DNA from: Nostoc punctiforme PCC 73102
Lineage (GTDB): Bacteria > Cyanobacteriota > Cyanobacteriia > Cyanobacteriales > Nostocaceae
Length of the DNA: 32,000 nt
Direction: 5' to 3'
NCBI RefSeq assembly: GCF_000020025.1
Contig: NC_010628.1
Location: forward strand, 4,050,001-4,082,000
Each line of letters starts with the position of its first letter. The stretch's first letter is position 1. A model generated the notes under the pieces. The model saw nothing but the letters and a program-made list of their open reading frames with translations. It was not told the DNA's origin and searched no databases. Below, piece by piece: positions 10,379 to 27,198 of this stretch. The position numbers and the translations under genes were made by a program.

Positions 10379-10397
10379 ATGTTTTCAAACAAGAATG

Positions 10398-12675: not shown

Positions 12676-12861
12676 CAGAAATTGCCACTGATAATTGGAA
12701 GGTTACAATTCTTATACTAATGTGCATTTTCTATTCAGGTGTCGCCAAAGGGTTTTACCTGCTGGGATTTTCAATTGCCCGTGGCAGTATGTCAAGGGTT
12801 GACAAATATATCTCATCATTTTGCTAATATCATCCCACAGAGGTAATGCAGGTGAGTTGGG

Positions 12862-13428: not shown

Positions 13429-13655
13429 AAACTCTGCCTGTTTCTAATTGAATGCACTACATTTTTTGGCATTGCATATTTGCGCGATGAATTAGCAACT
13501 TCCAAATTAAAAAACATTCAAAAATCTCATACAACAATCCTCTCTCTTCTTCATCTCTCTGTGCCCTCTGCGCCTCTGTGGTTTGTTTTCTTGGATAATT
13601 TATTTCTTGGAAATCTCTTAGCAACTTCCAAAATTACCCCTGCGCCCTGCCTGCC

Positions 13656-14543
13656 TCACTCCTCTTTCCAAGTTTGCAGTTGAAAATAAATTAATACCAG
13701 CGTCACTGCTAGTAACACCGTTGCTGCTGCTGCTGCATAACCAAAATCAAACTGACCAAAAGCCTCTTGATAAATGTAGTAAACCAGCAGATTAGTCGAA
13801 TTCAGCGGCCCGCCGCCAGTCATGACAAAAACTTGCTCAAAACTCCGCAATGTAAAAATCGCGGTAGTAATGACTGCAAATATCACAGTAGGGCGCAATC
13901 CAGGTAGAGTAATATACCAAAATTGTTGCCAAGCATTTGCTCCATCCAAATCTGCTGCTTCATAACGGCTCGGAGGAATTGCTTGCAACCCGGCTAAAAA
14001 AACTACCATATTGAAACCGAGTTGTTTCCAAATACTCATTAAAATAATTACTGGCATTGCCCAAAATGTATCTCCTAGCCAGGGGATGGCTGGAATGCCA
14101 AAAAAATCTAAAAGTCCGTTAACTGGCCCTGATGTTTGAAAGAGCCAGCGAAATCCCAAACCGGCTGCCACAAGTGAAATAATCGAAGGTAAAAAGTATG
14201 CACTCCGCATAATGCCCCGCAAAGGAATAGAGCGGTTTAATAGCACTGCCAATCCCAAGGAAATAACTAAACTGGGAATAATGGTGGCAACAGTAAAATA
14301 AAAGGTGTTACCTATAACTTGCCAAAAGTCAGGGTTGAGTAGCAAGCGCCAATAGTTTTTTAAGCCTATCCAATAAGTACCTTTTAAGGTGAAACTACCA
14401 GCAGTAAAGCTGAGGTAAAACAAATAGGCGATCGGCCAAATGATAAAAACGCCTAGTAAACTTAGTGCTGGTGTGAGAAAAGTCCAGGCAGCTACTGTAT
14501 CATTATCCAACCACGACTTAGTAGTATATATTTTTTTTGGCAT
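13656..14543 (-). CDS. Carbohydrate ABC transporter permease (MalF/UgpA-like), without adjacent partner genes
   Basis: 295 aa with about six hydrophobic helices. The EAA loop is 'EAADLDGANAWQQFWYITLPGLRP'. No second permease, binding protein or ATPase is nearby. Confidence 0.9.
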   Translation of the reverse strand: MPKKIYTTKSWLDNDTVAAWTFLTPALSLLGVFIIWPIAYLFYLSFTAGSFTLKGTYWIGLKNYWRLLLNPDFWQVIGNTFYFTVATIIPSLVISLGLAVLLNRSIPLRGIMRSAYFLPSIISLVAAGLGFRWLFQTSGPVNGLLDFFGIPAIPWLGDTFWAMPVIILMSIWKQLGFNMVVFLAGLQAIPPSRYEAADLDGANAWQQFWYITLPGLRPTVIFAVITTAIFTLRSFEQVFVMTGGGPLNSTNLLVYYIYQEAFGQFDFGYAAAAATVLLAVTLVLIYFQLQTWKEE

Positions 14544-14624
14544 CTATAATTTTTCCTCTTAGCTGTTTATGATCCTCCGCCCTGATTCTACCCTTAGCTT
14601 GGTTTCTCCTCGTATTAGCGATGT
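14521..14624. repeat. Left copy of a ~104-bp direct repeat (permease start plus relic purN 5' end)
   Basis: Manual alignment of the core 14537-14624 against 18711-18797 gives about 8 differences in ~88 aligned nt. Weaker similarity extends ~17 nt further left. The copy contains the real permease ATG (14541-14543, minus strand). Confidence 0.8.
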
Positions 14625-14625
14625 C
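14569..14625 (+). pseudogene. Relic duplicate of the purN 5' end (19 codons)
   Basis: ATG 14569 reads MILRPDSTLSLVSPRISDV, against the purN N-terminus MTLRPDSTLSLISPSISDV (16/19 identical). It then runs into repeat sequence and stops at ~14743. Confidence 0.7.
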
Positions 14626-14646
14626 TACGACGGGCTACGCCTACGC
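14618..14646. repeat. Left arm of a perfect 29-bp inverted repeat
   Basis: 'gcgatgtctacgacgggctacgcctacgc'. Its exact reverse complement 'gcgtaggcgtagcccgtcgtagacatcgc' is at 18326-18354. Related 'ggctacgcc' motifs occur at ~4509 and ~25373. Confidence 0.9.
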
Positions 14647-14690
14647 TTGGGTAAGCTCTTGGTTCATAATTATCTCTACTTAGAGTTTTT

Positions 14691-14855
14691 AGAGGATGTT
14701 TTAAAAGTCCTCTTGTCGCTAACAAAACGTTTCAGATCCCCCTAAATCCCCCTTAAAAAGGGGGACTTTGATTCCGGTTCCCCCCTTTTTAAGGGGGGCT
14801 AGGGGGGATCAATAAGTGCCTAAAATCACAGTAAACTACTTTTAAAACATCCTCT
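14691..14855. mobile_element. MITE-like element (~165 bp) with perfect 18-bp terminal inverted repeats
   Basis: The left TIR 'agaggatgttttaaaagt' (14691-14708) is the exact inverse of the right TIR 'acttttaaaacatcctct' (14838-14855). The interior is itself palindromic: 'gatccccctaaatcccccttaaaaaggggg...cccccctttttaaggggggctaggggggatc'. It has no coding capacity. Flanks are 'tacttagag' and 'tacttaaag'. Confidence 0.65.
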
Positions 14856-14981
14856 TACTTAAAGCTAATCCTAATTTGAGCGACTCTGTTTTTTGAAAAA
14901 AATTAGATCGTTCCGCTTCGCTACACTCTAAAAGGGTAAAAGAAAGAAGGGTAGAGGGCTAAAGAACTAAAGTATAAAGGG

Positions 14982-17900
14982 CTACTGAAGAATCCTCCCG
15001 GCAGCGCACACAATACGAAAACCAATATCGTTGAAGCGGTAGTCGCGCGAGTCGTTGCCGCGATACGCGGAACGGCAGTACTCAGGACTGTCGTCCCAGG
15101 AACCGCCCCGCAGCACTTGAAATTCATTATCATTATCTATCCATGCACTTCCATCAGTAGGCGCTCCTTTATAGCTGTCATGCCAAGTATCTTGGCACCA
15201 CTCCCAGACATTCCCGTGCATATCACATAATCCAAAGGCGTTGGGTGGAAAACTTCCTACTTCTGTTGTTTGTTGACGATATTTTCCCTTTGGTGCAGAA
15301 GCGTAAGTAGAATTTCCATCGTAGTTGGCTAACTCAGTTGTAATCGTCTCACCAAAGTGAAATGGTGTATTTGTGCCAGCACGACAGGCATATTCCCACT
15401 CTGCTTCACTTGGTAGGCGATATTCGCGCCCAGTCTTTTGACTCAGCTTTTTGCAAAATTCTACTGCATCATTCCAGGACACTGTTTCTACAGGACGTTT
15501 TGCTCCCTTGAAGTTGGAGGGATTGCTACCCATTATTTGCTGGTACTGTTCCTGAGTCACTTCAAACTTGCTTATAAAGAAAGCAGGTACATTTACAGCG
15601 TGTTGTGGGTTATGACCAGTTTCCCCGGGTGGTGAACCCATCTTAAATGAACCAGCAAGAATCTCAACCATCTCCAGAGTTATGCCATTACCTAAGTCCT
15701 CCTTAAAGAACTTAGCTTGTTTGGTAGGATCTCGTTTAATTACCTGTCCCTTTTCATCTACTGTTACCGTTTCAAACTTAAAGGTTTCAAGCTTAACGGG
15801 AATATATTTGGATGATTGGCCCTTAAAAATTTCACTACCTACTACTGCTGTCACCAAACCTACACGTCCCAAACCAGCCCACTTCAAAAACTTTTGTCGG
15901 GTAATTCGCTCTTGAGTCGGTTGAGTGGGTTGAGCAGGTCTTGGCTGCTGAATCGGAGATTTAATCAATTCTTGGCTTGCTACAACTCTGGTTTCAATTG
16001 CAGTGATGTCCGTTTGTTTAAGTCCTAGAGTCCGTTGAAGTTGCCTTAACCTCTGTCGAACATCATCACTATCAAGGGAATTCCCTGCTTCAATTGTTTT
16101 AGTTAATTCCTGCTCATACTGCTGTAATTTTTGGCCGTATTCTGCTTCCTCTCGCTGCCTTTGTTTTTCTGCCTCCTGCTGCTTTAGTCGTACAGCTTCT
16201 TGTTGTTGCCGTTGTTTCTCTGCCTCCTCCTGTCTGATTCTCTCTTGCTGTTTCCGGGATTCTGATTCTGAAGATGATTGAATAATAATTGCTTCGAGTT
16301 GAGCTATTTCCGCATCATTTAGTTCTAAAACTTGCTGAAATCGTCGCAACTCTTCACGAGTAGCGTCACTAAGAGGATATTCAAACTGCATCGACTCTCT
16401 AAACACCTCTTCATACTGCTGAAGCTTTTGCCGATGTTCCTCGATCGCAGCAACAATTGGATTTTCTATTGCAGTCACATTCTCAGCAGTCAGATTCAAC
16501 GCTTGATGACGTTGGGTTAGTTGAGAGCGTTTGAAACTACTGAGCGGATATTCTTGTTGAACAGCTTCTCTAAACTCTTGCTCATACTGCCGCAAGTTTG
16601 CTTGATACGTTTCAATCTCCGCATTAATCCGCCTCTCGATCGCCCCCACATCCCCTTCACTCAACCCCAACGTCTGCCAAGTTTCCTGCAACTGTTTCCG
16701 CGTCACCTCATCTGGATAATGCTGGCGCTGCGTCGCCTTCACAAACGCCTGCTCGTACTGCTGGAGTTTTTGATGATAGCTTTCAATCTGCGTGGTGATT
16801 TGTGCTTCAATTGGGGCAACATCTACATCCGTCAGTCCCAAACGCTGCTGTTGTTGGCGTAAATCATTCCGCGTTGCCTCACTAAGGGGATATTCCTGCT
16901 GCGTGGCAGTAAAAAACAGCCGTTGGTAGTCCTGGAGTTTCTGGCGATATGCCTCTACCTCAGCCGTAATCTGAGATTCTATCGCCGCAATATCCCCATT
17001 TGCAAGTTCTAATTGCTGCTGGGTTTGCCGTAAGCGATCGCGGCTTACTGTACTCAGGGGAAACTCCTGTCGCAGTGCTGTTGTAAACGCTTGCTGATAT
17101 GCTTGGAGGTTTTGCTGATGTGTCTTAAACCGTGCAGTTACTTGTGCTTCAATCGGCATCGTGTCTTCATTTCGCAGCCCCAAAATTTGCTGGAGATTTT
17201 GCAAATCGTGGCGATCGCTATCTGTAATTGTCTCATCTCGCTCCAGTAGTTCAGTAAACACCTGCTGATACTGCTGGAGTTTTTCCCGGAAGTCATTGCG
17301 ATACGGTTCCAACACCTCATCTTCAACCGCCTTCGCCTCAGTTGTCTCCAATCCCAAGCGAGTCCTCTGATAATCTAGTGTGCGACGACCAACAAGAGAA
17401 ATTTCGCCTCGATGAATAAATCGCGCAACTTTTTTACGGTATCGCTGTCTGGGATCGCCCGGAGCCACCTTTGCCAGTCGAATTTTAAAACCTTCTCGAA
17501 TTGCATAGATTTCCGGCTTCATTGCAGGTTGAACTTCTCGCACCTTCTGACTTGCGTATTCATGGAGTTCATCGATAGAGATAAACTCATCTTGATCGCG
17601 ATCGGCTTCTCCCGACTTGATACCTTCAATCAAAAAACGAGTGTAAATCGATAAATCTTGTCCCTCTTGCTCAAAGGAATATTGAGTCGAGGTAGAAGAA
17701 GTCAATACTGCTCGTCCTTCACCGCCTAACTGCTCTCGGATGTCAATCGTGCCGTCATCTTTGGCAGACATACCCTCAGCAAACGCGCCACTAAAGCAGC
17801 TATCTAGGATTACTACCTGCCGACGGGAGCGGCTTTCGCTCATGCGATCGTGAATGAAATTGGCAGACACCGACGTTGAGCGAATCAATTCGCCCTGCTG

Positions 17901-18203
17901 CGTTTTACTGGTGTTACGAGTCGCCAGATAGAGCCTACCGCGATCGTCTTTGATGCCGTGTCCCGAAAAATACAGCAACAGCAAATCATCTTTGTGCCGA
18001 CCGGAGAACAGCGTTTCGATCGCAATTTCTACAATTTGTCGTTCAGGATTTTTTAGCAGGGTAATATCTGACGCAGCAAACCCGCCCATCTCGCTATGCA
18101 GCAGTACCTCACAAACTGCTTCCACATCTCTAACTGCACTGGGCAAAGGGTTCAGCCCTGGCTCATACTCACTGACCCCAATCAGCAACGCTACCTTCGC
18201 CAT
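14982..18203 (-). CDS. Orthocaspase (peptidase C14) / 8 x 57-aa repeats / putative TM / FGE-sulfatase (SUMF1-like) domain protein
   Basis: 1073 aa. Caspase domain, aa 1-~245: 'VALLIGVSEY', 'LLLLYFSGH82G', 'VVILDSC136FSG'. Repeats span aa ~252-748. The hydrophobic segment is 'WAGLGRVGLVTAVVGSEIF' (aa ~775-793). FGE-sulfatase motifs, aa ~842-1068: 'RLPSEAEWEYACRAG', 'GLCDMHGNVWEWCQD', 'LRGGSW', 'IGFRIVCA'. Confidence 0.92.
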   Translation of the reverse strand: MAKVALLIGVSEYEPGLNPLPSAVRDVEAVCEVLLHSEMGGFAASDITLLKNPERQIVEIAIETLFSGRHKDDLLLLYFSGHGIKDDRGRLYLATRNTSKTQQGELIRSTSVSANFIHDRMSESRSRRQVVILDSCFSGAFAEGMSAKDDGTIDIREQLGGEGRAVLTSSTSTQYSFEQEGQDLSIYTRFLIEGIKSGEADRDQDEFISIDELHEYASQKVREVQPAMKPEIYAIREGFKIRLAKVAPGDPRQRYRKKVARFIHRGEISLVGRRTLDYQRTRLGLETTEAKAVEDEVLEPYRNDFREKLQQYQQVFTELLERDETITDSDRHDLQNLQQILGLRNEDTMPIEAQVTARFKTHQQNLQAYQQAFTTALRQEFPLSTVSRDRLRQTQQQLELANGDIAAIESQITAEVEAYRQKLQDYQRLFFTATQQEYPLSEATRNDLRQQQQRLGLTDVDVAPIEAQITTQIESYHQKLQQYEQAFVKATQRQHYPDEVTRKQLQETWQTLGLSEGDVGAIERRINAEIETYQANLRQYEQEFREAVQQEYPLSSFKRSQLTQRHQALNLTAENVTAIENPIVAAIEEHRQKLQQYEEVFRESMQFEYPLSDATREELRRFQQVLELNDAEIAQLEAIIIQSSSESESRKQQERIRQEEAEKQRQQQEAVRLKQQEAEKQRQREEAEYGQKLQQYEQELTKTIEAGNSLDSDDVRQRLRQLQRTLGLKQTDITAIETRVVASQELIKSPIQQPRPAQPTQPTQERITRQKFLKWAGLGRVGLVTAVVGSEIFKGQSSKYIPVKLETFKFETVTVDEKGQVIKRDPTKQAKFFKEDLGNGITLEMVEILAGSFKMGSPPGETGHNPQHAVNVPAFFISKFEVTQEQYQQIMGSNPSNFKGAKRPVETVSWNDAVEFCKKLSQKTGREYRLPSEAEWEYACRAGTNTPFHFGETITTELANYDGNSTYASAPKGKYRQQTTEVGSFPPNAFGLCDMHGNVWEWCQDTWHDSYKGAPTDGSAWIDNDNEFQVLRGGSWDDSPEYCRSAYRGNDSRDYRFNDIGFRIVCAAGRILQ
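15960..17450 (-). repeat. Intragenic array of eight 171-nt (57-aa) coding repeats
   Basis: The anchor 'LQxY(Q/E)QxF' recurs at aa 309, 366, 423, 480, 537 and 594, an exact 57-aa spacing, and again at 692 after a charged insert. The unit pattern is LQxYxQxF-x7-(E/F)YPLS-x3-R-x2-L-x3-QQ-x-LGL-x3-D(V/I)-x2-IE-x-(Q/R)I-x6-(Y/H)-x2-(K/N). Copies are diverged at the DNA level. Confidence 0.85.
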
Positions 18204-18325
18204 TTAATTTACCTATGCTGCGATCAAATCCTATACGGCTTTAATCTCTGTATTGTTTCATTTATACCAAGTTTTAGAATATTATCTCTATCAACCGGAC
18301 TAGATTATAAGCAAAATTTAATCAA

Positions 18326-18354
18326 GCGTAGGCGTAGCCCGTCGTAGACATCGC
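18326..18354. repeat. Right arm of the perfect 29-bp inverted repeat
   Basis: It is the exact reverse complement of 14618-14646. It lies 123 nt upstream of the caspase start codon (18203, minus strand). Confidence 0.9.
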
Positions 18355-18419
18355 AACATAGAAAGAGACACTGCTAAATTACAGCAGTTTTCATATATTT
18401 GAATCACACCTGTCGTAAG

Positions 18420-18437
18420 GGCGCAAGGTCTTGCGCC
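18420..18437. repeat. Hairpin of the 'ctgtcgtaRGGG' dispersed repeat family
   Basis: 'ggcgcaa ggtc ttgcgcc' (7-bp stem) is preceded by 'cacctgtcgtaagg'. Compare 'catctgtcgtagggg' at 4585-4599. Confidence 0.55.
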
Positions 18438-18515
18438 TCTATCGCGTGGTCTATTTACTACGATTTAGTAGAGCATTTCATTAATCCATAGCAAATTAAA
18501 TTTGGCAATACCCTG

Positions 18516-18662
18516 CAATGTTAATGCATCGGCTGACAATGCCAATACATAGGGTAACAATACCAATGTATCGGGTAACAATGCCAATACATCGGTTGAC
18601 AATGCTAATGCATCGGGTAACAATGCCAATGCATCGGGTAACAATATTAATGCGTCCTTTTG
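18516..18662. repeat. 21-bp tandem repeat, about 7 units (consensus caatgccaatgcatcgggtaa)
   Basis: Units start at 18516, 18537, 18558, 18579, 18600, 18621 and 18642 (the last degenerate). Each unit has 1-4 substitutions. The array lies in the divergent region between the caspase gene and purN. Confidence 0.9.
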
Positions 18663-18693
18663 CATTAAACAAGCTACGCTTTTACACAAAAGT

Positions 18694-18717
18694 GTACGTA
18701 TTATATCTTTTTGGCAT
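18694..18717 (-). pseudogene. Relic duplicate of the ABC-permease 5' end (8 codons)
   Basis: The reverse complement 'atgccaaaaagatataatacgtac' reads MPKRYNTY, against the real permease 'atgccaaaaaaaatatatactac' reading MPKKIYTT. The frame closes shortly after. Confidence 0.6.
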
Positions 18718-18797
18718 CTATAATTTTCCCTTTTAGCTGTTATGACCCTCCGCCCTGATTCTACCCTGAGCTTGATTTCTCCCAGTATTAGCGATGT
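18694..18797. repeat. Right copy of the ~104-bp direct repeat (relic permease start plus real purN 5' end)
   Basis: See 14521-14624. This copy contains the purN ATG (18742) and a relic 'cat' (18715-18717) at the same 25-nt spacing seen in the left copy. Confidence 0.8.
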
Positions 18798-19395
18798 TCG
18801 CCAACAAGTCGCCCCTTTAAAGCTGGGAATTATGGCTTCTGGGAATGGCAGCAATTTTGATGTAGTTGCTCAAGCTATCCAAGATGGACAACTAAATGCC
18901 CAAATTCAAGTTTTAATTTACAATAATCCCTCGGCGAAAGCAGCCGTCAGAGCAGCTAATAGAGGTGTAGAAGCTGTTTTATTGAATCACCGCAACTATA
19001 AAATCCGAGAAGAGTTGGATGAGAAAATTGTGCAGACATTGCAGCACTACGATGTGGAATGGGTGATTTTGGCGGGTTGGATGCGATTGTTAACGTCAGT
19101 TTTCATTGATGCCTTTCCTGACAAAATTATTAATATCCATCCTAGTTTGTTACCTAGTTTCAAGGGAATCCATGCTGTAGAACAAGCCTTGGCATCTGGG
19201 GTAAAAATTACTGGTTGTACGGCGCATATCGCTTGTTTAGAAATGGACAGTGGCCCAATATTGATGCAAGCCGCAGTACCAGTATTGCCAGATGATACAG
19301 CAGAAACACTCCACGCCAGGATTCAAATTCAAGAACATCGAATTTTGCCGCTAGCGATCGCTCTGGCAGCTTCTTCGTCAAAGTCATTTTTTTAA
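18742..19395 (+). CDS. purN: Phosphoribosylglycinamide formyltransferase
   Basis: 217 aa with 'KLGIMASGNGSNF', 'ILAGWMRLL', 'IINIHPSLLPSFKG' and 'GCTAHIACLEMDSGPIL'. Start 18742 is the only in-frame ATG upstream of the first beta-strand, giving a ~25-aa N-terminal extension. Confidence 0.92.
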   Translation: MTLRPDSTLSLISPSISDVRQQVAPLKLGIMASGNGSNFDVVAQAIQDGQLNAQIQVLIYNNPSAKAAVRAANRGVEAVLLNHRNYKIREELDEKIVQTLQHYDVEWVILAGWMRLLTSVFIDAFPDKIINIHPSLLPSFKGIHAVEQALASGVKITGCTAHIACLEMDSGPILMQAAVPVLPDDTAETLHARIQIQEHRILPLAIALAASSSKSFF

Positions 19396-19520
19396 CGTAG
19401 ACGCAGAGGCACAGAGAAGCCAGTGCGTTGGGGAGACAGCGCCGTGGGCGGGTTTCCCGACTTGAGGCGACTGTCGTCGGGTTCCCCGACTTGTAGCAAC
19501 TGGCGCGACACAGAGAAAAG
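19396..19520. repeat. Cluster of small dispersed repeats downstream of purN
   Basis: 'cgtagacgcagaggcacagagaag' (19396-19419) has an inverted relative at 13549-13581. Two units 29 nt apart follow: 'gggtttcccgacttgaggcgactg' (19450-19473) and 'gggttccccgacttgtagcaactg' (19479-19502). Confidence 0.6.
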
Positions 19521-19600
19521 AAAGAGAAGGAAAAAATTGCTTAACTGAACTGTAGTGGTCTATAAATCAATACAGTTCAGATAAGAGCAAAACACTTGTA

Positions 19601-19623
19601 GAGACGGCGATTTATCGCGTCTC
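19601..19623. repeat. 'gagacg...cgtctc' hairpin repeat
   Basis: 'gagacggcga ttta tcgcgtctc' is preceded by 'cttgta'. It belongs to the same family as 10398-10423 and ~2505-2520. There is no flanking U-tract on either strand. Confidence 0.5.
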
Positions 19624-19720
19624 AAAACCCCAAAATTTTTGCCAGTAGCCCTTAAATGAACCGTATTGGTCTATAAGTAAGTTTTCGTAACGTGCATTAA
19701 TCCCTGGTTGTTGACAGTAT

Positions 19721-21139
19721 TTATGATTCATTATCAAACCACCAAGGGTCATTAGTCGCATTAGTTTTAATTAAAATAGCTTTTTTTCGCATGAACCGTT
19801 TCAGCGCTGCTGCACCCATGCGCGATCCTCCCATCCCAGAGAATTTGAAAGCGTTTTTCTCTCCCTCGTGCATGATGGCAGTGAGTGCAGCATCGTTGAT
19901 ACTAATAGCACCTGCTTCTATCTGCTGGGCAATTTCTAAGGCTTCAGCTTCCGAGGCAAAAACAGCAGCACTTAATCCATAAATTGAATCATTTGCTAAA
20001 GACACCGCTTCCTCAACTGTGGAAAAAGGCATTATTGGCATAATGGGGCCAAAAGTCTCTTCCGTCATCACTTTCATGGAATGATTAACCTGGGTAAGCA
20101 CTGTTGGACGACACCACCAACCCCCGCCTAAGTCTTCAATTACACCACCGCAGTGAATGACTGCTCCCTTTTCTACTGCATCTAGGAGATGATCGCTAAT
20201 AATTGCGGCTTGTCTTTCAGCGATGATGGGGCCAATTTCTCCACTTTCAACAGTGGGGTAGGCTAGCCCAAGGCGATGTGCTTTGGCTACTAGTTGATGG
20301 TAAAACTTTTCAAATATGGATTCAGCAACATAAATCCGCTCAATTGATAAGCACGACTGTCCAGTGTTGACGACGGAACCCCACAAGATTGCTGAGGTTG
20401 CTAATTCTAAATTGGCTGATTCTAAAACGATCGCAGGATCTTTTCCCCCTAACTCCAAAAAAGCTGGAATAAACCGTTTAGCAGCCGCTTCTGCCACTTT
20501 TCGCCCTGTTGCGACACTACCTGTAAAGCATACTAAGTCTACATTGTCAATCAAAATAGATCCGGTTGCGCCTGCTCCTTCAATAAAAGTTAAGACATCG
20601 CGCAATTTAGGGACGGCATTGAGTGCTGTTGTCATTGGTGCAACGAAGCGGGGAGCTATTTCACTGGGTTTGACAATGACGGCACAACCCGCCAACAATG
20701 CCGGAATGGTATCAATAGTTGAGAGCAACAGTGGAAAATTCCACGGGCTAATTATCCCAACTAGGGGGTAAGGAACGGATGTTTGTTGTAAGGCGATAAA
20801 TGGAATTGCTGTGTTTTTTGCAGAGTCTTGCAGCAATTCTGGTGCTAACCTACACCACCGATCGATGCTAGAGAGGAAAGAGTCTATTTCTAATATTGAG
20901 GTTGATAATCTTCCCGTATCATTTACCAGAGCTTCCGTTAAGCGATCGCGCTCTGATACTATCGCTGCCTTCCACTGCTGTAAAGCTTCGATTCTCCCCT
21001 CTAAACCCAGCTTTTGCCAGCTAACTTGCGCCCGGCGCGATCGCTTGCATTGCTGTGCTAGCAACCTTGGGGGTGGCGGGATAATTACGTAGTCAAATTT
21101 GCCAGTTCGGGGATTGCGGACTTCTATTGGTTTTGTCAT
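19721..21139 (-). CDS. NAD(P)-dependent aldehyde dehydrogenase
   Basis: 472 aa. Motifs are 'ISPWNFP', catalytic Glu 'FLELGGKDP', catalytic Cys 'NTGQSCLSIERIYV' and 'EETFGPIMPI'. Confidence 0.92.
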   Translation of the reverse strand: MTKPIEVRNPRTGKFDYVIIPPPPRLLAQQCKRSRRAQVSWQKLGLEGRIEALQQWKAAIVSERDRLTEALVNDTGRLSTSILEIDSFLSSIDRWCRLAPELLQDSAKNTAIPFIALQQTSVPYPLVGIISPWNFPLLLSTIDTIPALLAGCAVIVKPSEIAPRFVAPMTTALNAVPKLRDVLTFIEGAGATGSILIDNVDLVCFTGSVATGRKVAEAAAKRFIPAFLELGGKDPAIVLESANLELATSAILWGSVVNTGQSCLSIERIYVAESIFEKFYHQLVAKAHRLGLAYPTVESGEIGPIIAERQAAIISDHLLDAVEKGAVIHCGGVIEDLGGGWWCRPTVLTQVNHSMKVMTEETFGPIMPIMPFSTVEEAVSLANDSIYGLSAAVFASEAEALEIAQQIEAGAISINDAALTAIMHEGEKNAFKFSGMGGSRMGAAALKRFMRKKAILIKTNATNDPWWFDNES

Positions 21140-21182
21140 TTGTCATTGGTTATTGGTCATTAGTCATTTGTCATTGGTCAAT
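21134..21182. repeat. STRR-type heptamer tandem repeat (7 units; TTGGTCA/TTTGTCA family)
   Basis: The units are tgtcatt tgtcatt ggttatt ggtcatt agtcatt tgtcatt ggtcaat. The first unit contains the ALDH start codon (CAT 21137-21139). Confidence 0.85.
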
Positions 21183-21205
21183 AATTAATAGTTATTCTTC
21201 CCCTG

Positions 21206-21226
21206 CTCCCCATTCCCCATTCCCCA
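21206..21226. repeat. Heptamer tandem repeat (c/t)TCCCCA x3
   Basis: 'ctcccca ttcccca ttcccca' ends 2 nt from the C-N hydrolase stop codon (21229-21231). Confidence 0.75.
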
Positions 21227-21228
21227 AT

Positions 21229-22272
21229 TCAAATTATCCCCAGTTGGGCTAACCGATCAATTGTGGCTTGCTGGGTTTGCAAAAAGTGTTTACGGTCTAT
21301 TTCTCCCTCCAGCATAGTATTAGCTGGGTAAAAGTGTGATTGGTGATAACTTTCGGCGTATAGTTCAAAGCGTTGGCGGGCAAGTAAATTATGTAACCCC
21401 GGCCGGCGGCGATCGCGGCGTAAGGCTCCTAAATCAATCTCGGCAAATGCTGCCATGCTCTCGCCTGCACCTGTTTCGGCTAAAACGATTCCCCGATGGT
21501 CGATGATTTTAGAGCCACCATCAGCCGAAGCTATGGGGATGGCAATATTAGCGATGCCTGCGGTATTGGCTGAAACTACGTAAGCCATGTTTTCGACGGC
21601 GCGAGTGATTTTTGCCGCGTCTTTGGGAGTGAGGTTTTTGTTGTATACTTCCGAAGTGGAATGGACAAAAATCTCTGCTCCTCGCATCGCCAGACACCTT
21701 GCCACTTCTGGATATAAAATTTCTTCTGATGCTAAAGCTGCTAAATTACCGATCGCAGTTTTGGCTACAGGGAAAACTCCCTCTAAACCATAACAGTCAA
21801 GATATTTATCCCAAACATCATGGGGAGTGGGAGCAAATAAAGAATTTAGCCGCCGATACCGCAAGACGATTGAGCCGGAGGGGTCAAGAATAAAACAGGT
21901 TTGGAAGTACAATCCAGGAAAGTTGGGATCAACTTCGTAGGCGTTACCAGCTAAGAATATTTTATGTTTTTGGGCAATTTTACCCAGCGCCTCATACTCT
22001 GCACCAGCCATTTCTATACAGGCTTTTTCTGCCCATCCTGCGAGACTATCTCCCATTGGGAAACCCGTGAGGAAATATTCTGGCAGTACAATTAAACGAC
22101 AATCAAAGCCAATAAAAGCGATACTGGCAGCAATTTGTTGAGCTAGGCGGTTGATGGAGTTTTGCATGAGCGATCGCGCTTCGTGGCGATCGGTTGCTTG
22201 GTTGACTGCATGACAGGTAACTTGGAGTGCCAAGGCCCGGAATGAGTTGAGATTATCAGTATTATCTGCCAT
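21229..22272 (-). CDS. Carbon-nitrogen hydrolase (aliphatic amidase/formamidase-like branch) with non-canonical catalytic positions
   Basis: The ORF track extends to 22317. I prefer ATG 22272 (MADNTDNLNSF), which removes the overlap with the upstream gene. 'RLIVLPEYFLTGF' carries the catalytic Glu. 'IVLRYRRLNSLF' has Arg where Lys is expected. 'NLAALASEEILYPEVARCLAMRGAEI' has Ser where the nucleophile Cys is expected. 'NMAYVVSANTAG' is also present. Confidence 0.85.
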   Translation of the reverse strand: MADNTDNLNSFRALALQVTCHAVNQATDRHEARSLMQNSINRLAQQIAASIAFIGFDCRLIVLPEYFLTGFPMGDSLAGWAEKACIEMAGAEYEALGKIAQKHKIFLAGNAYEVDPNFPGLYFQTCFILDPSGSIVLRYRRLNSLFAPTPHDVWDKYLDCYGLEGVFPVAKTAIGNLAALASEEILYPEVARCLAMRGAEIFVHSTSEVYNKNLTPKDAAKITRAVENMAYVVSANTAGIANIAIPIASADGGSKIIDHRGIVLAETGAGESMAAFAEIDLGALRRDRRRPGLHNLLARQRFELYAESYHQSHFYPANTMLEGEIDRKHFLQTQQATIDRLAQLGII

Positions 22273-22297
22273 GCTGTATCCAAATTTTTTTACTACC

Positions 22298-23059
22298 TTA
22301 TAGAATACGATCGCCACCCCAGAGCGATCGCACTAATTTATCCGTCATTTCTGCCCCAAATAGCCGCACAGCAATTTGGTTGTCTGGGTCGCGTTCTGCA
22401 ACAGTACGGCGCACAAATAAGTCACGCTCAGATAAAGCATCCCGTTCTGATTCTGCTACTGGTTCAGCTTCATCTACCCAACCTAGCCAACGATCTATCA
22501 TCTCATGCGCTAGCGTGTGGATGCGAGCAAGTGTCTCTTCTGTAACTGGACTGGTGTAACACAAACTAGTATGAGATTGTACCTGACGGATATACAGCGT
22601 TTTGCTAATATACTGCTGAAAACGTGAATCTTTCAGGAACGCCAGATATGTCTGGTTCACAGGTTCGTAGTAACGATCCAAATAGTCGAGGTCAGTGAAT
22701 AGATCGGTGCGAGAGACGTAATCTATAAAAAAGAACAGTTCTGGAACCGTGGCAAAGACAATAGCCAAATGAGGAACATGAATCTGCGACTTGAGCCAAA
22801 CAGTTAGGTGCATATTGCAAAAGCCAGATTTAGGTTCGCGTAACCATGAATGCACAAGCCAATCAATTTCTGGACCAGAGAAGGTATTGACCGAGCCGTG
22901 CGCTTCTCCAATCAAGGCAGAGTATTTTTTAAAATTCTCGGTAGACGGATCTGAATGTAATTCAAAACGAGCGTCTATTTTCTCACGGAGTTCATTTGTC
23001 CAACCCCACAACTGCTCAAATAAGGCTGTATTGTCTACATTAATTTTCTGCTCAAGCAC
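22298..23059 (-). CDS. Red chlorophyll catabolite reductase (RCCR)-like protein, ferredoxin-dependent bilin reductase superfamily
   Basis: 253 aa. 'EIDWLVHSWL', 'VPHLAIVF', 'IDYVSRTDLFTDLDYLDRYYEP', 'LYIRQVQSHTSLCYTS' and the C-terminal 'ERDLFVRRTVAERDP...LFGAEMTDKLVRSLWGG' are colinear with my recollection of plant RCCR/ACD2 ('IDFVIGSWIH', 'APNFVVEL', 'LDLPHRKDLVLNPDYLKEYYQDT', '...FGEEVSSRVVHAIKEAFG'). Confidence 0.7.
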   Translation of the reverse strand: MLEQKINVDNTALFEQLWGWTNELREKIDARFELHSDPSTENFKKYSALIGEAHGSVNTFSGPEIDWLVHSWLREPKSGFCNMHLTVWLKSQIHVPHLAIVFATVPELFFFIDYVSRTDLFTDLDYLDRYYEPVNQTYLAFLKDSRFQQYISKTLYIRQVQSHTSLCYTSPVTEETLARIHTLAHEMIDRWLGWVDEAEPVAESERDALSERDLFVRRTVAERDPDNQIAVRLFGAEMTDKLVRSLWGGDRIL

Positions 23060-23242
23060 TGTTTGTACCCTTTTAGATCAGAATGCAAACAAACATAATA
23101 TAAAAGCAAAAAACCAGCATCTAGCTTCTGCCAGAATTCTTTCACTGAGCCAAAACAACTGTAAATGGCGTGGAATTATTGTTTGCTTCTCCTGTCTTTG
23201 GATAAACTTAATTTAAATCAAGAACTTCGGGTAGAAGAGAGA

Positions 23243-24178
23243 ATGTCAAATTTCCGCGATCGCACAGAGTCAAACACCGATAAAGTTTTACTCATCGGAG
23301 TTACTGGCGGCACAGGTGGAAATGTCGTTAAGGGATTTCTCGAACAGGGAGTTACCAACCTGCGAGTCATCACTAGAGAAATTGATCTTAATCGTCCAAC
23401 TCTTGCAAAGCTCAACAATGCCGGAGTTGAACTGGTAAAAGCCAACCTCGACGATAAAACTTCTCTCATAGCAGCCTTTGCAGGAATTTCGGCTGTTTAC
23501 TGCCACGCCACTTCTGCGGACTCCGCTAAAATTGACCCGCTAGAGGTGGAGAGAGCAAGGCGAGTTGCACAAGCTGCCAAACAAGCTGAAATTAAGCACT
23601 TTGTCTACAATTCCGCAGGTGGGGCGGATAGGAATTCCGGAATCCCTCGCATTGAGCAAAAGTATCAAGTAGAGGAAATTCTCAAAGAAGCGGGCTTACC
23701 TACTACTATGTTGCGAGCCTGCTTGTTTATGGAGGAGTTTTGGAAGAAGTACACGCGACCTTCTATTATCAAAGGTAGTTTTCCGTTTTCAATTCAGCCA
23801 GATAAACCCCTTCATCTAATTACAACCAAGGATATGGGCCGCGTTGCTGCCTACGTAATTAAACATCCCACCAAGTATATTGGTCAAGAAATTGAGCTAG
23901 CTGGCGATGTGCTGACTCCAAAACAGATGGCAGAGGCATTCTCCCAAGCGCAGGGGCTAAAAGTTGTCCATAAAGAGACACCTGCTTGGATTTTCTTACT
24001 CTTGCTGCAAAAAGAACTGTTCGATTTGATTCAGTGGTATCGCAAAAAAGGTTATCAAGCCGATGTCCAGCGTTTACGAGAAGAGTTTCCTGGACTTCTA
24101 ACAACATTTAGTGAATTTTTGGCAGAAACTCACTGGTCAAATGCGGAACTTACCTATGAGAGTCTGCGATCGCATTAG
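23243..24178 (+). CDS. NmrA-like NAD(P)-binding (atypical SDR) protein
   Basis: The ORF track starts at 23165. I prefer ATG 23243 (MSNFRDRTESNTDKVLLIGVTGGTGGNVV), preceded by 'gaagagaga'. It has the Rossmann motif GxxGxxG and an NmrA-like length of ~311 aa. Confidence 0.85.
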   Translation: MSNFRDRTESNTDKVLLIGVTGGTGGNVVKGFLEQGVTNLRVITREIDLNRPTLAKLNNAGVELVKANLDDKTSLIAAFAGISAVYCHATSADSAKIDPLEVERARRVAQAAKQAEIKHFVYNSAGGADRNSGIPRIEQKYQVEEILKEAGLPTTMLRACLFMEEFWKKYTRPSIIKGSFPFSIQPDKPLHLITTKDMGRVAAYVIKHPTKYIGQEIELAGDVLTPKQMAEAFSQAQGLKVVHKETPAWIFLLLLQKELFDLIQWYRKKGYQADVQRLREEFPGLLTTFSEFLAETHWSNAELTYESLRSH

Positions 24179-24235
24179 TACACTGTGGCAAAAGTTTGCT
24201 TACCTTTAACCAGTTGCTCTGAGCAACTGATTAAG

Positions 24236-24271
24236 CCGGAATGAGTTGAGATTATCAATATTATCTGCCCT
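24236..24271 (-). pseudogene. Relic of the C-N hydrolase 5' end left by segmental duplication
   Basis: The 55-nt blocks 24236-24290 and 22237-22291 differ at 3 positions. One of these changes ATG to AGG (24269-24271). The relic reads (R)ADNIDNLNSFR, against MADNTDNLNSFR. Homology ends at 24236. Confidence 0.7.
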
Positions 24272-24288
24272 GCTGTGTCCAAATTTTT

Positions 24289-25068
24289 TTAACCATGCCT
24301 AGGGTCGTCTATGCCTACACCTCCCCAGAGCGATCGCACAAGTTTATCTGTCAACTCAGAACCAAACATCTGTGCGGCAAATTTATTACCTGGATCGCGT
24401 TCAGCACTGCTACGGCGCAGCGCCAAATCACGAGCTGCCAAAGCTTCCCGTGCATCTTCTGACACTGGTTCAGCTGTATCTACCCAAGTTAGCCAGCGAT
24501 CGAGGGTTTCGTGTGCAAGTGTGCGAATCAGTTCGAGAGTTTCCAAGGTGGGTGCGCTGGTGTAGCACAAGCTAGCAGGCGATTGAAATAAGCGAATATA
24601 GGCGCTTTTGCTAGTAAATGCCTTTAAGCGCGAATCGTCTTGCAACTTTAAGAATGTTTGATTAACTGGCTCATAGTAGCGATCGAGATATGCCAAATCG
24701 GTTAAAAGCTCAGTTCGGGGGATGTAATCTATATAAAAGAAAATATTTGGTAACGTGCCAAACTCAAAGGCTAAATGAGGAACCTGAATATGCGACTTCA
24801 ACCAAGTGGTGAGACGCATCGTGCTAAAGTTTGATTTTTCGGGGTTTCCTAGCCACGAATGAACTAACCAATCAATTTCTTTCCCGGAAAAAGCTGTGAG
24901 CGAACCCTTCATCTTGCTATCGAGACTGCTGTATTGCTGTAAACCTTCTACAGAAGGGTCTGGATGTAACTGGAAACGAGCCTCTAGTTTTTGGTGTAGT
25001 TCTTTTGTAATTCCCCACAACTGCTCAAATACAGCCTTATTGTCTAGATCGCTTGGTTGCTGAGTCAT
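24289..25068 (-). CDS. RCCR-like protein, paralog of 22298-23059
   Basis: The ORF track starts at 25125. Met20 (25068, MTQQPSDLDNKAVFEQLWG) aligns with the paralog start MLEQKINVDNTALFEQLWG. By eye the two are roughly 60% identical, with all the motif blocks shared. Confidence 0.7.
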   Translation of the reverse strand: MTQQPSDLDNKAVFEQLWGITKELHQKLEARFQLHPDPSVEGLQQYSSLDSKMKGSLTAFSGKEIDWLVHSWLGNPEKSNFSTMRLTTWLKSHIQVPHLAFEFGTLPNIFFYIDYIPRTELLTDLAYLDRYYEPVNQTFLKLQDDSRLKAFTSKSAYIRLFQSPASLCYTSAPTLETLELIRTLAHETLDRWLTWVDTAEPVSEDAREALAARDLALRRSSAERDPGNKFAAQMFGSELTDKLVRSLWGGVGIDDPRHG

Positions 25069-25593
25069 AGTTTGAGTTTGCGGTTTTTCTATAAACTTTA
25101 TATTTAGTTTGACACTCTTCGGCATCTAGCTCTTTGCTCATATCGAGCAACCCATTCATCGAATTCAGGACTGTGGTAAACAGTTCATCAACTAGACATA
25201 ATACAGCTATTGCAGCAATCTGTATTAACCGATGATTTCTCAACTGGCTCTTAATTTAGATGAGTATTTTCAAATAGATACAGGAATTATATTTAATTTT
25301 TGAAAAAACTCAGTACCACGAAAAGAGCCTTATTTCCCGTTGCCTTTTATCTTCTAAGCTAAATTAGTATGGCTACGCCACGTTGCGCGAACAGAAATTA
25401 AAACCACTTCTTATAGTCTATTCTCCTTCCATTTAAAAAATATTCTATGCCATTATCGTTATATTTATATACAAACATGTCAACATAGGATTATCAATAG
25501 ATTTATTCCGTATTAATACTGGCTAAATCATATTTAAAAAAGTGTTAGATTTAGGAATGTGCAATTATAATGTATCTAAGAAAATAGTATAAA

Positions 25594-27198
25594 ATGCGCC
25601 TGCTTTACAAACTTAGATTTGTTTCTTCTCAATTAGTAACTGTAACAGTCCTGCTGACATTATTCTTGTTTATCCCTCAAGTTTTTCTAAATTGGCAAGC
25701 ATATTATAATTTCAATAGTATTATTAAAAATGAATTTAAACTACAAACACTGAGTGATAAAATTACTTATTTTGATGAAGTTTTAACAATGTCAGCCCGG
25801 ATGAATGCTGCTACAGGTAACTCTGCTTGGGAACAACGATATCGTCAATTTGAGCCTAAACTTGATATTGCTATTAAAGAATCTATTAAGCTGGCTCCTA
25901 AAGCATATCAAAATGAGGATGCCCAAAAAATTGATGCTGCTAATCAGCTTTTGGTTACAATGGAATATCAATCTTTTGATTTAGTGAAGAAAGATCAAAA
26001 AGGGGCGGCACAACTACTACTTTCTAGCAGAGAATATGAAACTCAGAAGCGTATTTATGCTGATGGTGTTGCCAAAAGAAACCGTAATATATCACTTCAG
26101 TTACAGCAGAAGATTGATGAATATTATACAAAAATATTTTGGGCAGTTTTAGAATCTATTATAAGTTTAGTACTGCTGATTCCGGCATGGCTTTTAGTAT
26201 TGAATTTATTGCAGCAATATTTAAAAGCTAAAAAAATTGCTCAAGCTGCCTTAGAAGAAACGAATTGTAGGTTGGAAATGCAAGTGGCAGAGAGAACGGC
26301 AAAATTAGAATATAAAAATCTTCAACTACAACAGACACTACAAGAATTGCAATACACTCAAGTACAACTTATTCAAACTGAAAAAATGTCCTCATTAGGC
26401 CAGTTAGTTGCTGGTGTTGCTCATGAAATCAATAATCCAGTTAATTTTATTCATGGTAATCTGATACATCTTAAAGAATATAGTCAGCAATTACTAACTT
26501 TAATTAAGCTGTATAAACAAGAGAATTTTAATTACAACCCAGAAATAACTACTCTGATTGATGAGATAGATTTAGAGTTTATTATTGATGATATGCCAAA
26601 AATATTATCGTCAATGGAAGTTGGTACTGAGCGCATTTGTGAGATTGTGCTAACTTTGCGGAACTTCTCGCGTCTTGATGAAGCAGAAATGAAATCTGTT
26701 GATATTCATGAAGGAATTAATAGCACACTATTAATTTTACAGCATCGTCTTAAAGAAAATCATAAACAGCAAGAAATTGAAATAATCAAAAATTATGGTA
26801 ATTTGCCCCTTGTTGAATGTTATGTAGGAGGATTAAATCAGGTGTTTATGAATATATTTAGTAATGCTATTGATGCTTTGTATGAACAGAAAGGAGAGTA
26901 TTTAATAGGAAAGGTTAAAAAACATCTGAGTTCTATTATTGTCTATACTCAAGTGAAGAATGAAGAGTATGTAATTATTAGTATTAAAGATAATGGGCCA
27001 GGAATAACAGAGGAAGTTAAAACTAGATTATTTGACCCTTTTTTTACTACTAAACCTGTAGGTAAAGGCACTGGACTAGGATTATCTATTAGTTACCAGA
27101 TTATAGTAGATAAGCACAAGGGAAAAATCAACTGTATTTCTGCATCAGGTAAGGGTACAGAGTTTGTGATTGAGATTCCTATCAAGCAGACGCGGTAA
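25594..27198 (+). CDS. Membrane sensor histidine kinase (two TM segments, extracytoplasmic sensor domain), orphan
   Basis: 534 aa. TM1 is 'LVTVTVLLTLFLFIPQVF', followed by a ~150-aa loop and TM2 'IFWAVLESIISLVLLIPAWLLVLNLL', then a coiled coil. The H-box 'GQLVAGVAHEINNPVN', N-box 'NIFSNAIDA', 'DNGPGI' and 'GTGLGL' are present. The kinase core is a close relative of the one at 4799-7858. Confidence 0.92.
   Translation: MRLLYKLRFVSSQLVTVTVLLTLFLFIPQVFLNWQAYYNFNSIIKNEFKLQTLSDKITYFDEVLTMSARMNAATGNSAWEQRYRQFEPKLDIAIKESIKLAPKAYQNEDAQKIDAANQLLVTMEYQSFDLVKKDQKGAAQLLLSSREYETQKRIYADGVAKRNRNISLQLQQKIDEYYTKIFWAVLESIISLVLLIPAWLLVLNLLQQYLKAKKIAQAALEETNCRLEMQVAERTAKLEYKNLQLQQTLQELQYTQVQLIQTEKMSSLGQLVAGVAHEINNPVNFIHGNLIHLKEYSQQLLTLIKLYKQENFNYNPEITTLIDEIDLEFIIDDMPKILSSMEVGTERICEIVLTLRNFSRLDEAEMKSVDIHEGINSTLLILQHRLKENHKQQEIEIIKNYGNLPLVECYVGGLNQVFMNIFSNAIDALYEQKGEYLIGKVKKHLSSIIVYTQVKNEEYVIISIKDNGPGITEEVKTRLFDPFFTTKPVGKGTGLGLSISYQIIVDKHKGKINCISASGKGTEFVIEIPIKQTR

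Follow-up and report, generated by a model that had tools for sequence, protein, structure and literature searches.

In a 32-kb window of the Nostoc punctiforme PCC 73102 genome (contig NC_010628.1, positions 4,050,001 to 4,082,000; window positions are counted from its first nucleotide), the genes Npun_R3277, Npun_R3276 and Npun_R3275 encode a protein resembling red chlorophyll catabolite (RCC) reductase (RCCR), a nitrilase-fold hydrolase and an aldehyde dehydrogenase (ALDH), respectively. These genes form a conserved, probably co-transcribed cluster, and our preferred reading, to which we assign a probability of about 0.5, is that it serves as one functional unit in a modular pathway that breaks down or detoxifies ring-opened tetrapyrroles or their pyrrolic fragments. 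In the list of open reading frames (ORFs) of the window all three are on the minus strand, head to tail, and they lie beside a divergent NmrA-like gene and a second RCCR-like gene. The features of the region are as follows (aa, amino acids; nt, nucleotides).

22298..23059, minus strand: RCCR-like paralog A, Npun_R3277, ACC81717.1; 253 aa from a GTG start that is also the annotated start
22273..22297, minus strand: spacer from the stop of RCCR-like A to the ATG of the hydrolase; 25 nt, read from the sequence
21229..22272, minus strand: CN_hydrolase protein, Npun_R3276, ACC81716.1; 347 aa from ATG
21140..21228, minus strand: spacer between hydrolase and ALDH; 89 nt, with heptamer tandem arrays
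19721..21139, minus strand: ALDH, Npun_R3275, ACC81715.1; 472 aa
23060..23164, no strand: divergent intergenic region between RCCR-like A and the NmrA-like gene; presumed promoter region for both
23165..24178, plus strand: NmrA-like NAD(P)-binding reductase, Npun_F3278, ACC81718.1; PF05368, 145 bits
24289..25125, minus strand: RCCR-like paralog B, Npun_R3279, ACC81719.1; PF06405, 69.1 bits

The coordinates, strand and two gaps given for the three genes in an initial annotation, made from the letters of the window, all proved correct when the sequence was re-read. The TAA stop of RCCR-like A occupies 22298-22300 and the hydrolase ATG is at 22272, leaving 25 nt, while the hydrolase stop at 21229 and the ALDH ATG at 21139 leave 89 nt. 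The second gap had been called repeat-filled, and it holds two heptamer tandem arrays, GTCATTG x6.6 at 21135-21180, which shares its first bases with the beginning of ALDH, and TCCCCAT x2.9 at 21207-21226. The longest hydrolase ORF is GTG-initiated (21229-22317); the ATG at 22272, which had been preferred as the start, gives the annotated 347-aa protein, and 347 aa is the most frequent length among the hydrolase orthologs listed. A terminator scan found no terminator-like site in the 25-nt or the 89-nt spacer, and the genes are operon-like, being on one strand and separated by short spacers free of such sites. Promoter and terminator matches were no more frequent than in shuffled sequence, and an Rfam scan of 18000-26000 found no known RNA family. 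The two neighbours had also been mentioned in the initial annotation, and their family assignments hold. The NmrA-like ORF is 337 aa from its first ATG; since the majority of the members of its sequence cluster are 309 aa, its true start may be Met27 (23243), in which case the shared divergent region would be 183 nt. RCCR-like B is 278 aa as the longest ORF and 259 aa from the RefSeq start at 25068.

The families proposed for the three proteins were borne out by profile searches, with scores well over the Pfam cut-offs: RCCR-like A matches PF06405 (RCC_reductase; 76.2 bits, cut-off 24.9), the hydrolase PF00795 (CN_hydrolase; 109.5 bits, cut-off 23.2) and the ALDH PF00171 (Aldedh; 341.5 bits, cut-off 23). 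RCCR-like B likewise exceeds the PF06405 cut-off of 24.9. The 253-aa protein, on whose place in the superfamily of RCCR and the ferredoxin-dependent bilin reductases (FDBRs) the initial annotation had made its case depend, is thus a member. The Arabidopsis RCCR (AtRCCR) structures 3agb, 3aga and 2zxk match RCCR-like A by sequence (E about 1e-11) and are also the top Foldseek matches of its AlphaFold model (pLDDT 84, pTM 0.84), with TM values of 0.73-0.77 (0.76 for the best match) and E about 1e-14; next come the bilin reductases HY2, PebB, PcyA and PebA (TM 0.64-0.79). RCCR-like A is therefore predicted by its model to have the FDBR/RCCR alpha/beta/alpha sandwich fold.

We aligned cyanobacterial and Chloroflexota relatives with a second FDBR-like family and an AtRCCR fragment. 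Eleven positions are invariant in this alignment, including Asp224 of RCCR-like A, the counterpart of AtRCCR Asp291 in this alignment. Opposite AtRCCR Glu154 stands Val101 in RCCR-like A and Glu in RCCR-like B (in LAFEF), at 22-27% identity between AtRCCR and the RCCR-like proteins, and RCCR-like B keeps the Asp291 equivalent as well. Among RCCR-like proteins encoded upstream of the hydrolase, 23 have Glu at this site and 27 have Ala, Val, Gly or Ser. We take Glu154 and Asp291, residues that reportedly go back to Sugishima et al. 2010, to be the acidic pair that faces the substrate in AtRCCR; they were mapped here by an assumed offset of 43 from the crystallised chain to the full-length protein.

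The pair Npun_R3277/R3279 has been discussed previously (Thomas et al., 2009, PMC2716323). In what that paper relays of the array of Campbell et al. (2007), Npun_R3277 is strongly induced and Npun_R3279 is repressed in hormogonia. It is the only paper in the searchable literature, which largely leaves out subscription journals, that mentions any of the locus tags Npun_R3275-R3279, and the cluster locus tags were not found in the text supplements of the N. punctiforme RNA-seq papers searched. In the same literature there is no functional assignment for cyanobacterial RCCR homologs, in agreement with the initial annotation, and no report of RCC reductase activity (the ferredoxin-dependent conversion of RCC to primary fluorescent chlorophyll catabolite, pFCC) in any bacterial member.

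To survey the gene order elsewhere, one genome per species was scanned with the RCCR-like alignment; the best 80 of the 354 encoding stretches were examined by mapping the window proteins onto them (loci from this and the other searches are numbered with the prefix L below). The RCCR-like, hydrolase and ALDH genes lie on one strand in 49 of the 80 loci. In four further loci the contig ends within or just past the hydrolase gene, 12 have the RCCR-like gene and then ALDH without the hydrolase, and 15 have neither hydrolase nor ALDH beside the RCCR-like gene. The 49 loci come from Nostoc, Anabaena, Cylindrospermum-like strains, Scytonema, Stigonema, Brasilonema, Tolypothrix, Fischerella, Pelatocladus, Floridaenema and others, and their median gaps are about 71 nt and about 102 nt. 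The trio is also present at a locus with the hydrolase sequence that is listed for Anabaena sp. FACHB-709, and it was found again in five low-GC loci (GC, G+C content) among the 45 metagenome loci examined. Flanking genes differ from one trio locus to another, and the flanks seen in the window (PBP and histidine kinase on one side, purN and caspase on the other) are shared only with close Nostoc relatives. The order of the trio is conserved across heterocyst-forming cyanobacteria, beyond general synteny. The initial annotation had staked its proposal on the three genes being syntenic in some other genome, and because they are so in many, the proposal stands on this point.

The trio is often accompanied by a fourth gene. 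In 36 of the 49 trio loci a DUF3598_N gene follows ALDH on the same strand, 29 to about 5,700 nt downstream (L017, L020-L022, L051 and L052 are among the loci compared). It is not present in the window, where purN follows ALDH on the opposite strand after a 325-nt spacer (19396-19720), and it is likewise missing from L001 and L011; the gene has been lost or moved in the N. punctiforme lineage. No bacterial function of DUF3598 was found in the titles or abstracts of the literature searched. The hydrolase gene has also been lost in places. Short N- and C-terminal hydrolase remnants lie between intact RCCR-like and ALDH genes in the Nostoc loci L035, L037, L050, L057-L060 and L075, and since remnants of both termini remain, this indicates that the hydrolase was removed by internal deletion in at least eight of the 12 Nostoc loci without it. 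The NmrA-like gene is a frequent divergent partner of RCCR-like genes, also in cyanobacteria outside the Nostocales, and it is paired with an RCCR-like gene without hydrolase or ALDH in the cyanobacterial loci L033, L039 and L040 and in the metagenome-assembled genomes (MAGs) L029 and L080.

The hydrolase had been labelled atypical, and rightly so. Its model (pLDDT 84) has aliphatic amidase and formamidase as top Foldseek matches (E about 1e-20), and the protein is predicted to have the alpha-beta-beta-alpha fold of the nitrilase superfamily. Active-site residues were placed by alignment to NitFhit 1ems (Glu54, Lys127, Cys169) and AmiF 2e2k (Lys133, Glu141, residue 166). The first catalytic Glu is retained as Glu65, while the catalytic Lys is replaced by Arg141, the second Glu by Asp152 and the Cys nucleophile by Ser182, so that in place of the canonical Glu-Lys-Cys triad and second Glu the protein has a Glu-Arg-Asp-Ser tetrad. 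All 24 clade members compared, which come from cyanobacteria, Acidobacteriota, Bacteroidota and Gammaproteobacteria, have the same residues at these four positions, and an acidic residue two positions past the nucleophile is conserved. An exhaustive search of cluster representatives gave the structure of the clade: the nearest relatives (about 46-67% identical) have Glu-Arg-Ser (E-R-S), a sister clade (about 35-43% identical) has Glu-Arg-Cys (E-R-C), and beyond these lie proteins with the canonical Glu-Lys-Cys, some of them two-domain proteins of about 520-750 aa. The hydrolase is the most conserved of the three proteins, with 81-99% identity across the cyanobacterial loci compared. None of the NCBIfam equivalog cut-offs for aliphatic amidase (57.5 bits, cut-off 427), formamidase (57.4, cut-off 406) or N-carbamoylputrescine amidase (54.5, cut-off 410) was reached, and we rejected an identity as aliphatic amidase on this score. 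No relevant account of natural Ser or Arg variants of the nitrilase superfamily was found in the literature searched.

The ALDH has the canonical motifs SPWNFP (Asn), ELGGK (Glu) and GQSC (Cys) in its translation. PDB entry 4h7n matches its residues 1-469 with E 1.4e-264, and the structure of an ortholog has therefore been solved; its depositors name the protein only "Aldehyde dehydrogenase" (PDB 4H7N). The best NCBIfam model is NF006916, a GabD2-type succinic semialdehyde dehydrogenase (SSADH), with 351.2 bits against an equivalog cut-off of 521, and we rejected this identity. No specific function is assignable to the ALDH.

The E-R-S hydrolase was also found in loci outside the Nostocales, with the following contents.

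L086 (Blastocatellia): the hydrolase gene overlaps the ALDH gene, the proteins being 65% and 64% identical to the window pair; further genes for hydantoinase A/B, isochorismatase, HMGL-like, DUF1838, SnoaL and cupin proteins and a 347-aa protein that weakly matches the glyoxalase family (PF00903)
L090 (Scytolyngbya): hydrolase, ALDH, DUF3598_N and alpha/beta hydrolase, without an RCCR-like gene
L093/L094: hydrolase, ALDH, DUF3598_N and DUF4437, with an inserted toxin-antitoxin pair
L091 (Pyrinomonadaceae) and L092 (metagenome scaffold): hydrolase with hydantoinase A, AMP-ligase, Amidohydro_2, cupin and DUF3598_N; in L092 also HMGL-like, CoA-transferase III, isochorismatase and hydantoinase B; in L091 also a CpeT-family gene
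L087 (Bacteroidota): hydrolase with HMGL-like, CoA-transferase, aconitase-like subunits and DUF3598_N
L084 (Gammaproteobacteria): hydrolase with DUF1838, short-chain dehydrogenase, methyltransferase and molybdopterin oxidoreductase
L089 (Merismopedia): hydrolase, with GUN4-domain and Mg-chelatase H genes nearby

Because the combination recurs outside the Nostocales, also without an RCCR-like gene (Scytolyngbya and Acidobacteriota), hydrolase and ALDH, often with DUF3598_N, are a module in their own right. The insertion in L093/L094 (9068-9650) consists of a 78-aa ORF and a PemK toxin gene between hydrolase and ALDH, and the cluster is otherwise intact. With the additional DUF3598_N gene in most relatives, separable modules and a hydrolase that is deleted in places, the unit is not the fixed trio that had first been described.

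Plant chlorophyll breakdown employs pheophytinase (PPH), an alpha/beta hydrolase, then pheophorbide a oxygenase (PAO), a Rieske protein, and RCCR, which reduces RCC. Outside the Nostocales, RCCR-like genes are found beside genes for the same types of enzyme. The Chloroflexota MAGs L042, L061 and L073 share a block of DUF3891, two unknown genes, an RCCR-like gene, an alpha/beta hydrolase, a Rieske/VanA_C oxygenase, a second FDBR-like paralog that we refer to as FDBR2, and a further unknown gene that is a paralog of one of the two upstream unknowns. An HMGL-like gene lies further downstream in L042 and L073, in the former as a flavin-reductase-HMGL fusion. In a Xenococcaceae MAG (L028) the order is Rieske, FDBR2, RCCR-like. 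Scanning metagenomes with the alignment of non-Nostocales RCCR-like proteins added 16 mostly high-GC loci in which a Rieske gene adjoins the RCCR-like gene. Most of these also have FDBR2, about half have an alpha/beta hydrolase, and five have at least one of HMGL-like, CoA-transferase III, hydantoinase A/B and isochorismatase. In total there are 20 loci with RCCR-like and Rieske/VanA_C genes, mostly high-GC or from Chloroflexota, 15 of them with FDBR2 and 10 with an alpha/beta hydrolase, and we regard this as a candidate bacterial tetrapyrrole ring-opening cluster. Loci noted for this arrangement are L028, L042, L061, L073, L096, L097, L100, L119-L124, L126, L129, L130, L135 and L136; DUF3891 and two unknown genes are frequently upstream, and HMGL-like, CoA-transferase III and hydantoinase A/B genes are frequently near.

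Several observations connect these clusters with those of the hydrolase. HMGL-like, CoA-transferase III, isochorismatase and hydantoinase A/B genes are common to RCCR/Rieske clusters (L042, L073, L097, L100, L119-121 and L135) and E-R-S hydrolase clusters (L086, L087, L091 and L092), across phyla. In L029 the RCCR-like and NmrA genes stand with DUF3598_N, DUF1838 and the 347-aa protein, which L086 and L089 have as companions of their hydrolase. On a 393-kb metagenome contig (L103, GC 0.57) the stretch 8456-17163 carries co-directional genes for an RCCR-like protein, an alpha/beta hydrolase, an ALDH (492 aa), an Amdase-family protein (PF17645), a two-domain CN hydrolase (573 aa) and an FAD monooxygenase; upstream of these, the opposite strand carries genes for isochorismatase, CoA-transferase and HMGL-like proteins. 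In L042 a CN hydrolase gene and an isochorismatase gene lie upstream of the RCCR/Rieske block, and this CN hydrolase is also a two-domain protein that retains Cys. Orthology of the two-domain CN hydrolases of L042 and L103 with Npun_R3276 was rejected because they are only 28-31% identical. Within the Nostocales, a Rieske protein with a PaO domain (PF08417, 61 bits) is encoded convergently after the RCCR-like/hydrolase/ALDH/DUF3598 cluster in Tolypothrix sp. VBCCA 56010 (L032, 14050-15399, about 0.1 kb away) and in Fischerella sp. PCC 9431 (L025, 16157-17494, about 1.8 kb away). These proteins are about 450 aa and have a C-terminal CxxC motif and a hydrophobic tail. With two of the 49 trio loci concerned, their link to the cluster is only suggestive.

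In the pathway that we favour, the RCCR-like protein would bind a linear tetrapyrrole through its FDBR/RCCR fold and, by analogy with the action of plant RCCR on RCC, would perform a ferredoxin-dependent two-electron reduction. The Glu-Arg-Asp-Ser nitrilase-fold protein and the ALDH, which are linked independently of the trio (adjacent in L086 and L090, and together also in L093/L094), would act as a pair that turns amide- and aldehyde-bearing products into carboxylates. Formyl oxidation might then fall to the ALDH and lactam cleavage to the hydrolase; the latter activity had been ascribed to an amidase-type enzyme attacking an amide or lactam, which cannot be assumed because the hydrolase is without the canonical Cys and Lys. 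The DUF3598_N protein would join the pair in most relatives, and the NmrA-like reductase and RCCR-like B could supply extra reductions. The earlier idea of an opened tetrapyrrole as substrate gains independent though indirect support from the presence of the same RCCR-like family beside Rieske, FDBR2 and alpha/beta hydrolase genes in non-cyanobacterial bacteria, where genes for amide hydrolases, ALDH, CoA-transferase and lyases are also close by. Of the earlier interpretation as a whole, the families and the synteny stand, the fixed trio does not, and a lactam-cleaving amidase cannot be presumed.

A number of observations weigh against this pathway. The 32-kb window contains no Rieske oxygenase or other tetrapyrrole gene, a Rieske oxygenase is near only two of the 49 trio loci, and the Rieske proteins of the heterotroph clusters match VanA_C and not the PaO domain. 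RCCR-like A is without Glu at the position aligned with plant RCCR Glu154. The CN hydrolases of L042 and L103 and the ALDH of L103 are not orthologous to the window proteins. We take the heterotroph hydrolase clusters to be like those for creatinine/N-methylhydantoin or the lower nicotinate pathway, and they could equally well serve a small N-heterocycle unrelated to tetrapyrroles. Finally, the parts of the cluster come apart: RCCR-like genes are without hydrolase and ALDH in 15 of the 80 loci, the hydrolase was deleted in at least eight of the 12 Nostoc loci while the RCCR-like and ALDH genes stayed, and no RCCR-like gene lies within the 8 kb examined on each side of the E-R-S hydrolase and ALDH genes in L086, L090 and L093, or of the E-R-S hydrolase of L092, where the ALDH is distant. 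Such a pattern would also be expected if two unrelated modules merely stood side by side, their adjacency in the Nostocales being inherited and not functional. Hydrolase and ALDH, with or without DUF3598_N, would then degrade a small nitrogen compound (a cyclic amide or imide, or an amino- or amido-aldehyde), and the RCCR-like protein, with or without NmrA, would be separate. The separate occurrence of each part, with NmrA and RCCR-like alone in L033, L039, L040 and L080, the hydrolase deletions that left the neighbours in place, and the hydantoinase A/B, isochorismatase-type amidase, Amidohydro_1 and GntR regulator genes in the heterotroph contexts are all consistent with this explanation. 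Against it stand the adjacency, shared direction and close spacing that the trio keeps in distant Nostocales families while its flanks change, and the partner genes that RCCR/Rieske and hydrolase clusters have in common in other phyla. L103 and L042 moreover combine an RCCR-like gene with a CN hydrolase (and, in L103, an ALDH) through non-orthologous members, and L029 ties an RCCR-like gene to DUF3598_N, DUF1838 and the 347-aa partner. We consider two independent modules, the main rival to our reading, somewhat unlikely.

The hydrolase itself may be a pseudoenzyme that serves as a non-catalytic binding or scaffolding partner of the ALDH, which would be compatible with the other readings. Three of the four catalytic residues are replaced (Arg141, Asp152 and Ser182), an active natural Ser or Arg variant has not been described in the literature searched, and the protein is dispensable in some Nostoc lineages. 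Each replacement is chemically conservative, however, and the four positions do not vary among the 24 sequences from four bacterial groups; the hydrolase is also better conserved than the RCCR-like protein and the ALDH, and its E-R-C sister clade keeps Cys together with Arg, as if a working site had evolved stepwise. Because the replacements are conservative and invariant and the sister clade retains Cys, we argue for a site that is altered yet probably working, not dead, and regard a pseudoenzyme as unlikely. Ordinary amine or polyamine/gamma-aminobutyrate (GABA) metabolism, with an N-carbamoylputrescine-type or aliphatic amidase, an SSADH or aminoaldehyde dehydrogenase and the RCCR-like protein as a bystander, would fit the best NCBIfam matches of the two enzymes and the nearest solved ALDHs besides the ortholog, which are aminoaldehyde and betaine-aldehyde dehydrogenases. 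These NCBIfam scores are far under their cut-offs (351/521 for SSADH, 57.5/427 for aliphatic amidase and 54.5/410 for N-carbamoylputrescine amidase), the hydrolase is without the Cys and Lys that those amidases require, and agmatine deiminase, transaminase and decarboxylase genes were not found in the cluster. Amine metabolism is thus very improbable. A wider proposal treats the Nostoc trio and the Rieske/RCCR-like/FDBR2 clusters as versions of a single, so far undescribed, bacterial pathway for the complete dismantling of tetrapyrroles, chlorophyll-type or other. It would begin with dephytylation and the oxygenolytic opening of the ring, followed by reduction by RCCR-like enzymes and cleavage to monopyrrolic imide, amide and aldehyde fragments; these would be processed by the new Glu-Arg-Asp-Ser nitrilase-fold enzyme and the ALDH, and CoA-transferase and HMG-CoA-lyase-like enzymes would finally feed central metabolism. 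We regard this proposal as doubtful.

Comparison with known systems shows both likenesses and differences. The RCCR-like proteins are related to plant RCCR in sequence and predicted fold, with the Asp aligned with Asp291 invariant; the non-cyanobacterial RCCR-like genes beside alpha/beta hydrolase and Rieske genes represent the same three enzyme types as PPH, PAO and RCCR; and a PaO-domain Rieske gene adjoins the cluster in two Nostocales loci. Unlike the plant system, the RCCR-like proteins are only 22-27% identical to AtRCCR, paralog A has Val at the site aligned with Glu154, the window is without a Rieske gene, and the heterotroph Rieske proteins carry VanA_C rather than a PaO domain. Steps by a nitrilase-fold protein or an ALDH are absent from the plant pathway, and in Arabidopsis the formyl group is removed by the P450 CYP89A9. 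With the FDBRs (PcyA, PebA/B, PebS and HY2) the RCCR-like proteins share the alpha/beta/alpha sandwich (to judge from the Foldseek matches to HY2, PebB, PcyA and PebA), and the FDBR2 partners belong to the FDBR superfamily. They differ in their weak scores, under the thresholds, for PF05996 (19.6 bits against 31) and NF009723 (19.7 against 327), and in published trees RCCRs and related sequences appear only as an outgroup to the FDBRs (Rockwell et al., 2023, PMC10151467).

The hydrolase agrees with the nitrilase-superfamily amidases (AmiE, AmiF, Nit2/omega-amidase and N-carbamoylputrescine amidase) in its PF00795 match, predicted fold and first catalytic Glu, and differs from them in having Arg, Asp and Ser for Lys, the second Glu and Cys and in belonging to a separate E-R-S clade. 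The heterotroph clusters, with alpha/beta hydrolases, an isochorismatase-family amidase, PF17645, hydantoinase A/B and Amidohydro_1, presumably resemble the lower nicotinate pathway (N-formylmaleamate deformylase NicD, maleamate amidase NicF and maleate isomerase NicE) and the creatinine/N-methylhydantoin pathway, and we take NicE to be related to the Amdase family. Those genes are not in the Nostoc window, in contrast, and the pathways are without an FDBR-fold protein.

Other features of the window lie outside the cluster. On the minus strand at 14982-18203 is a gene for a 1073-aa protein that has a caspase domain (Peptidase_C14) at its N terminus, an FGE-sulfatase domain at its C terminus and a long Gln-rich stretch, which in the translation looks as if it were made of internal repeats. 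L081 encodes a homolog that is shorter (650 aa), and its position just upstream of a bAvd gene suggests that it is a target of a diversity-generating retroelement there. A 21-nt tandem array of 6.2 copies (CAATGCCAATGCATCGGGTAA) occupies 18516-18645, some 100 nt before the ATG annotated for purN (18742); the ORFs that cover it, 18465-18854 on the minus strand and 18518-18736 on the plus strand, are probably not genes. G+C falls to 0.32 at 25001-27000, compared with 0.42-0.46 in the cluster, and this stretch covers a histidine kinase gene (25594-27198; 534 aa) whose place beside the cluster is conserved only in close Nostoc relatives. Next to the Obg GTPase gene, on the plus strand at 2689-3396, is a gene for a 235-aa protein with a TerB-like domain and a "Mo-dependent nitrogenase C-terminus" domain (PF06967, 146 bits).

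All the genes are annotated by family in public records. As the initial annotation had stated of a characterised cyanobacterial pathway with this combination of genes, no description of the conserved trio was found in the searchable literature, nor of the Glu-Arg-Asp-Ser hydrolase clade, the association with DUF3598_N or the Rieske/RCCR-like/FDBR2 clusters of heterotrophs. A Cys nucleophile is regarded as a hallmark of the nitrilase superfamily, and a conserved clade of it with Arg, Asp and Ser for Lys, Glu and Cys is therefore of enzymological interest. If the modules are unrelated, the finding would be an ordinary conserved neighbourhood without known function. Very large amounts of tetrapyrrole are turned over every year, and chlorophyll breakdown is well mapped in plants; to our knowledge, how cyanobacteria and heterotrophs dispose of chlorophyll and other tetrapyrroles past the early steps is largely open. 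In place of the vague Nostoc annotation "red chlorophyll catabolite reductase", our analysis offers a well-delimited, testable set of candidate genes: a conserved cluster in the genetically tractable N. punctiforme, an ALDH with a solved ortholog, and clusters in other phyla with a candidate ring-opening oxygenase.

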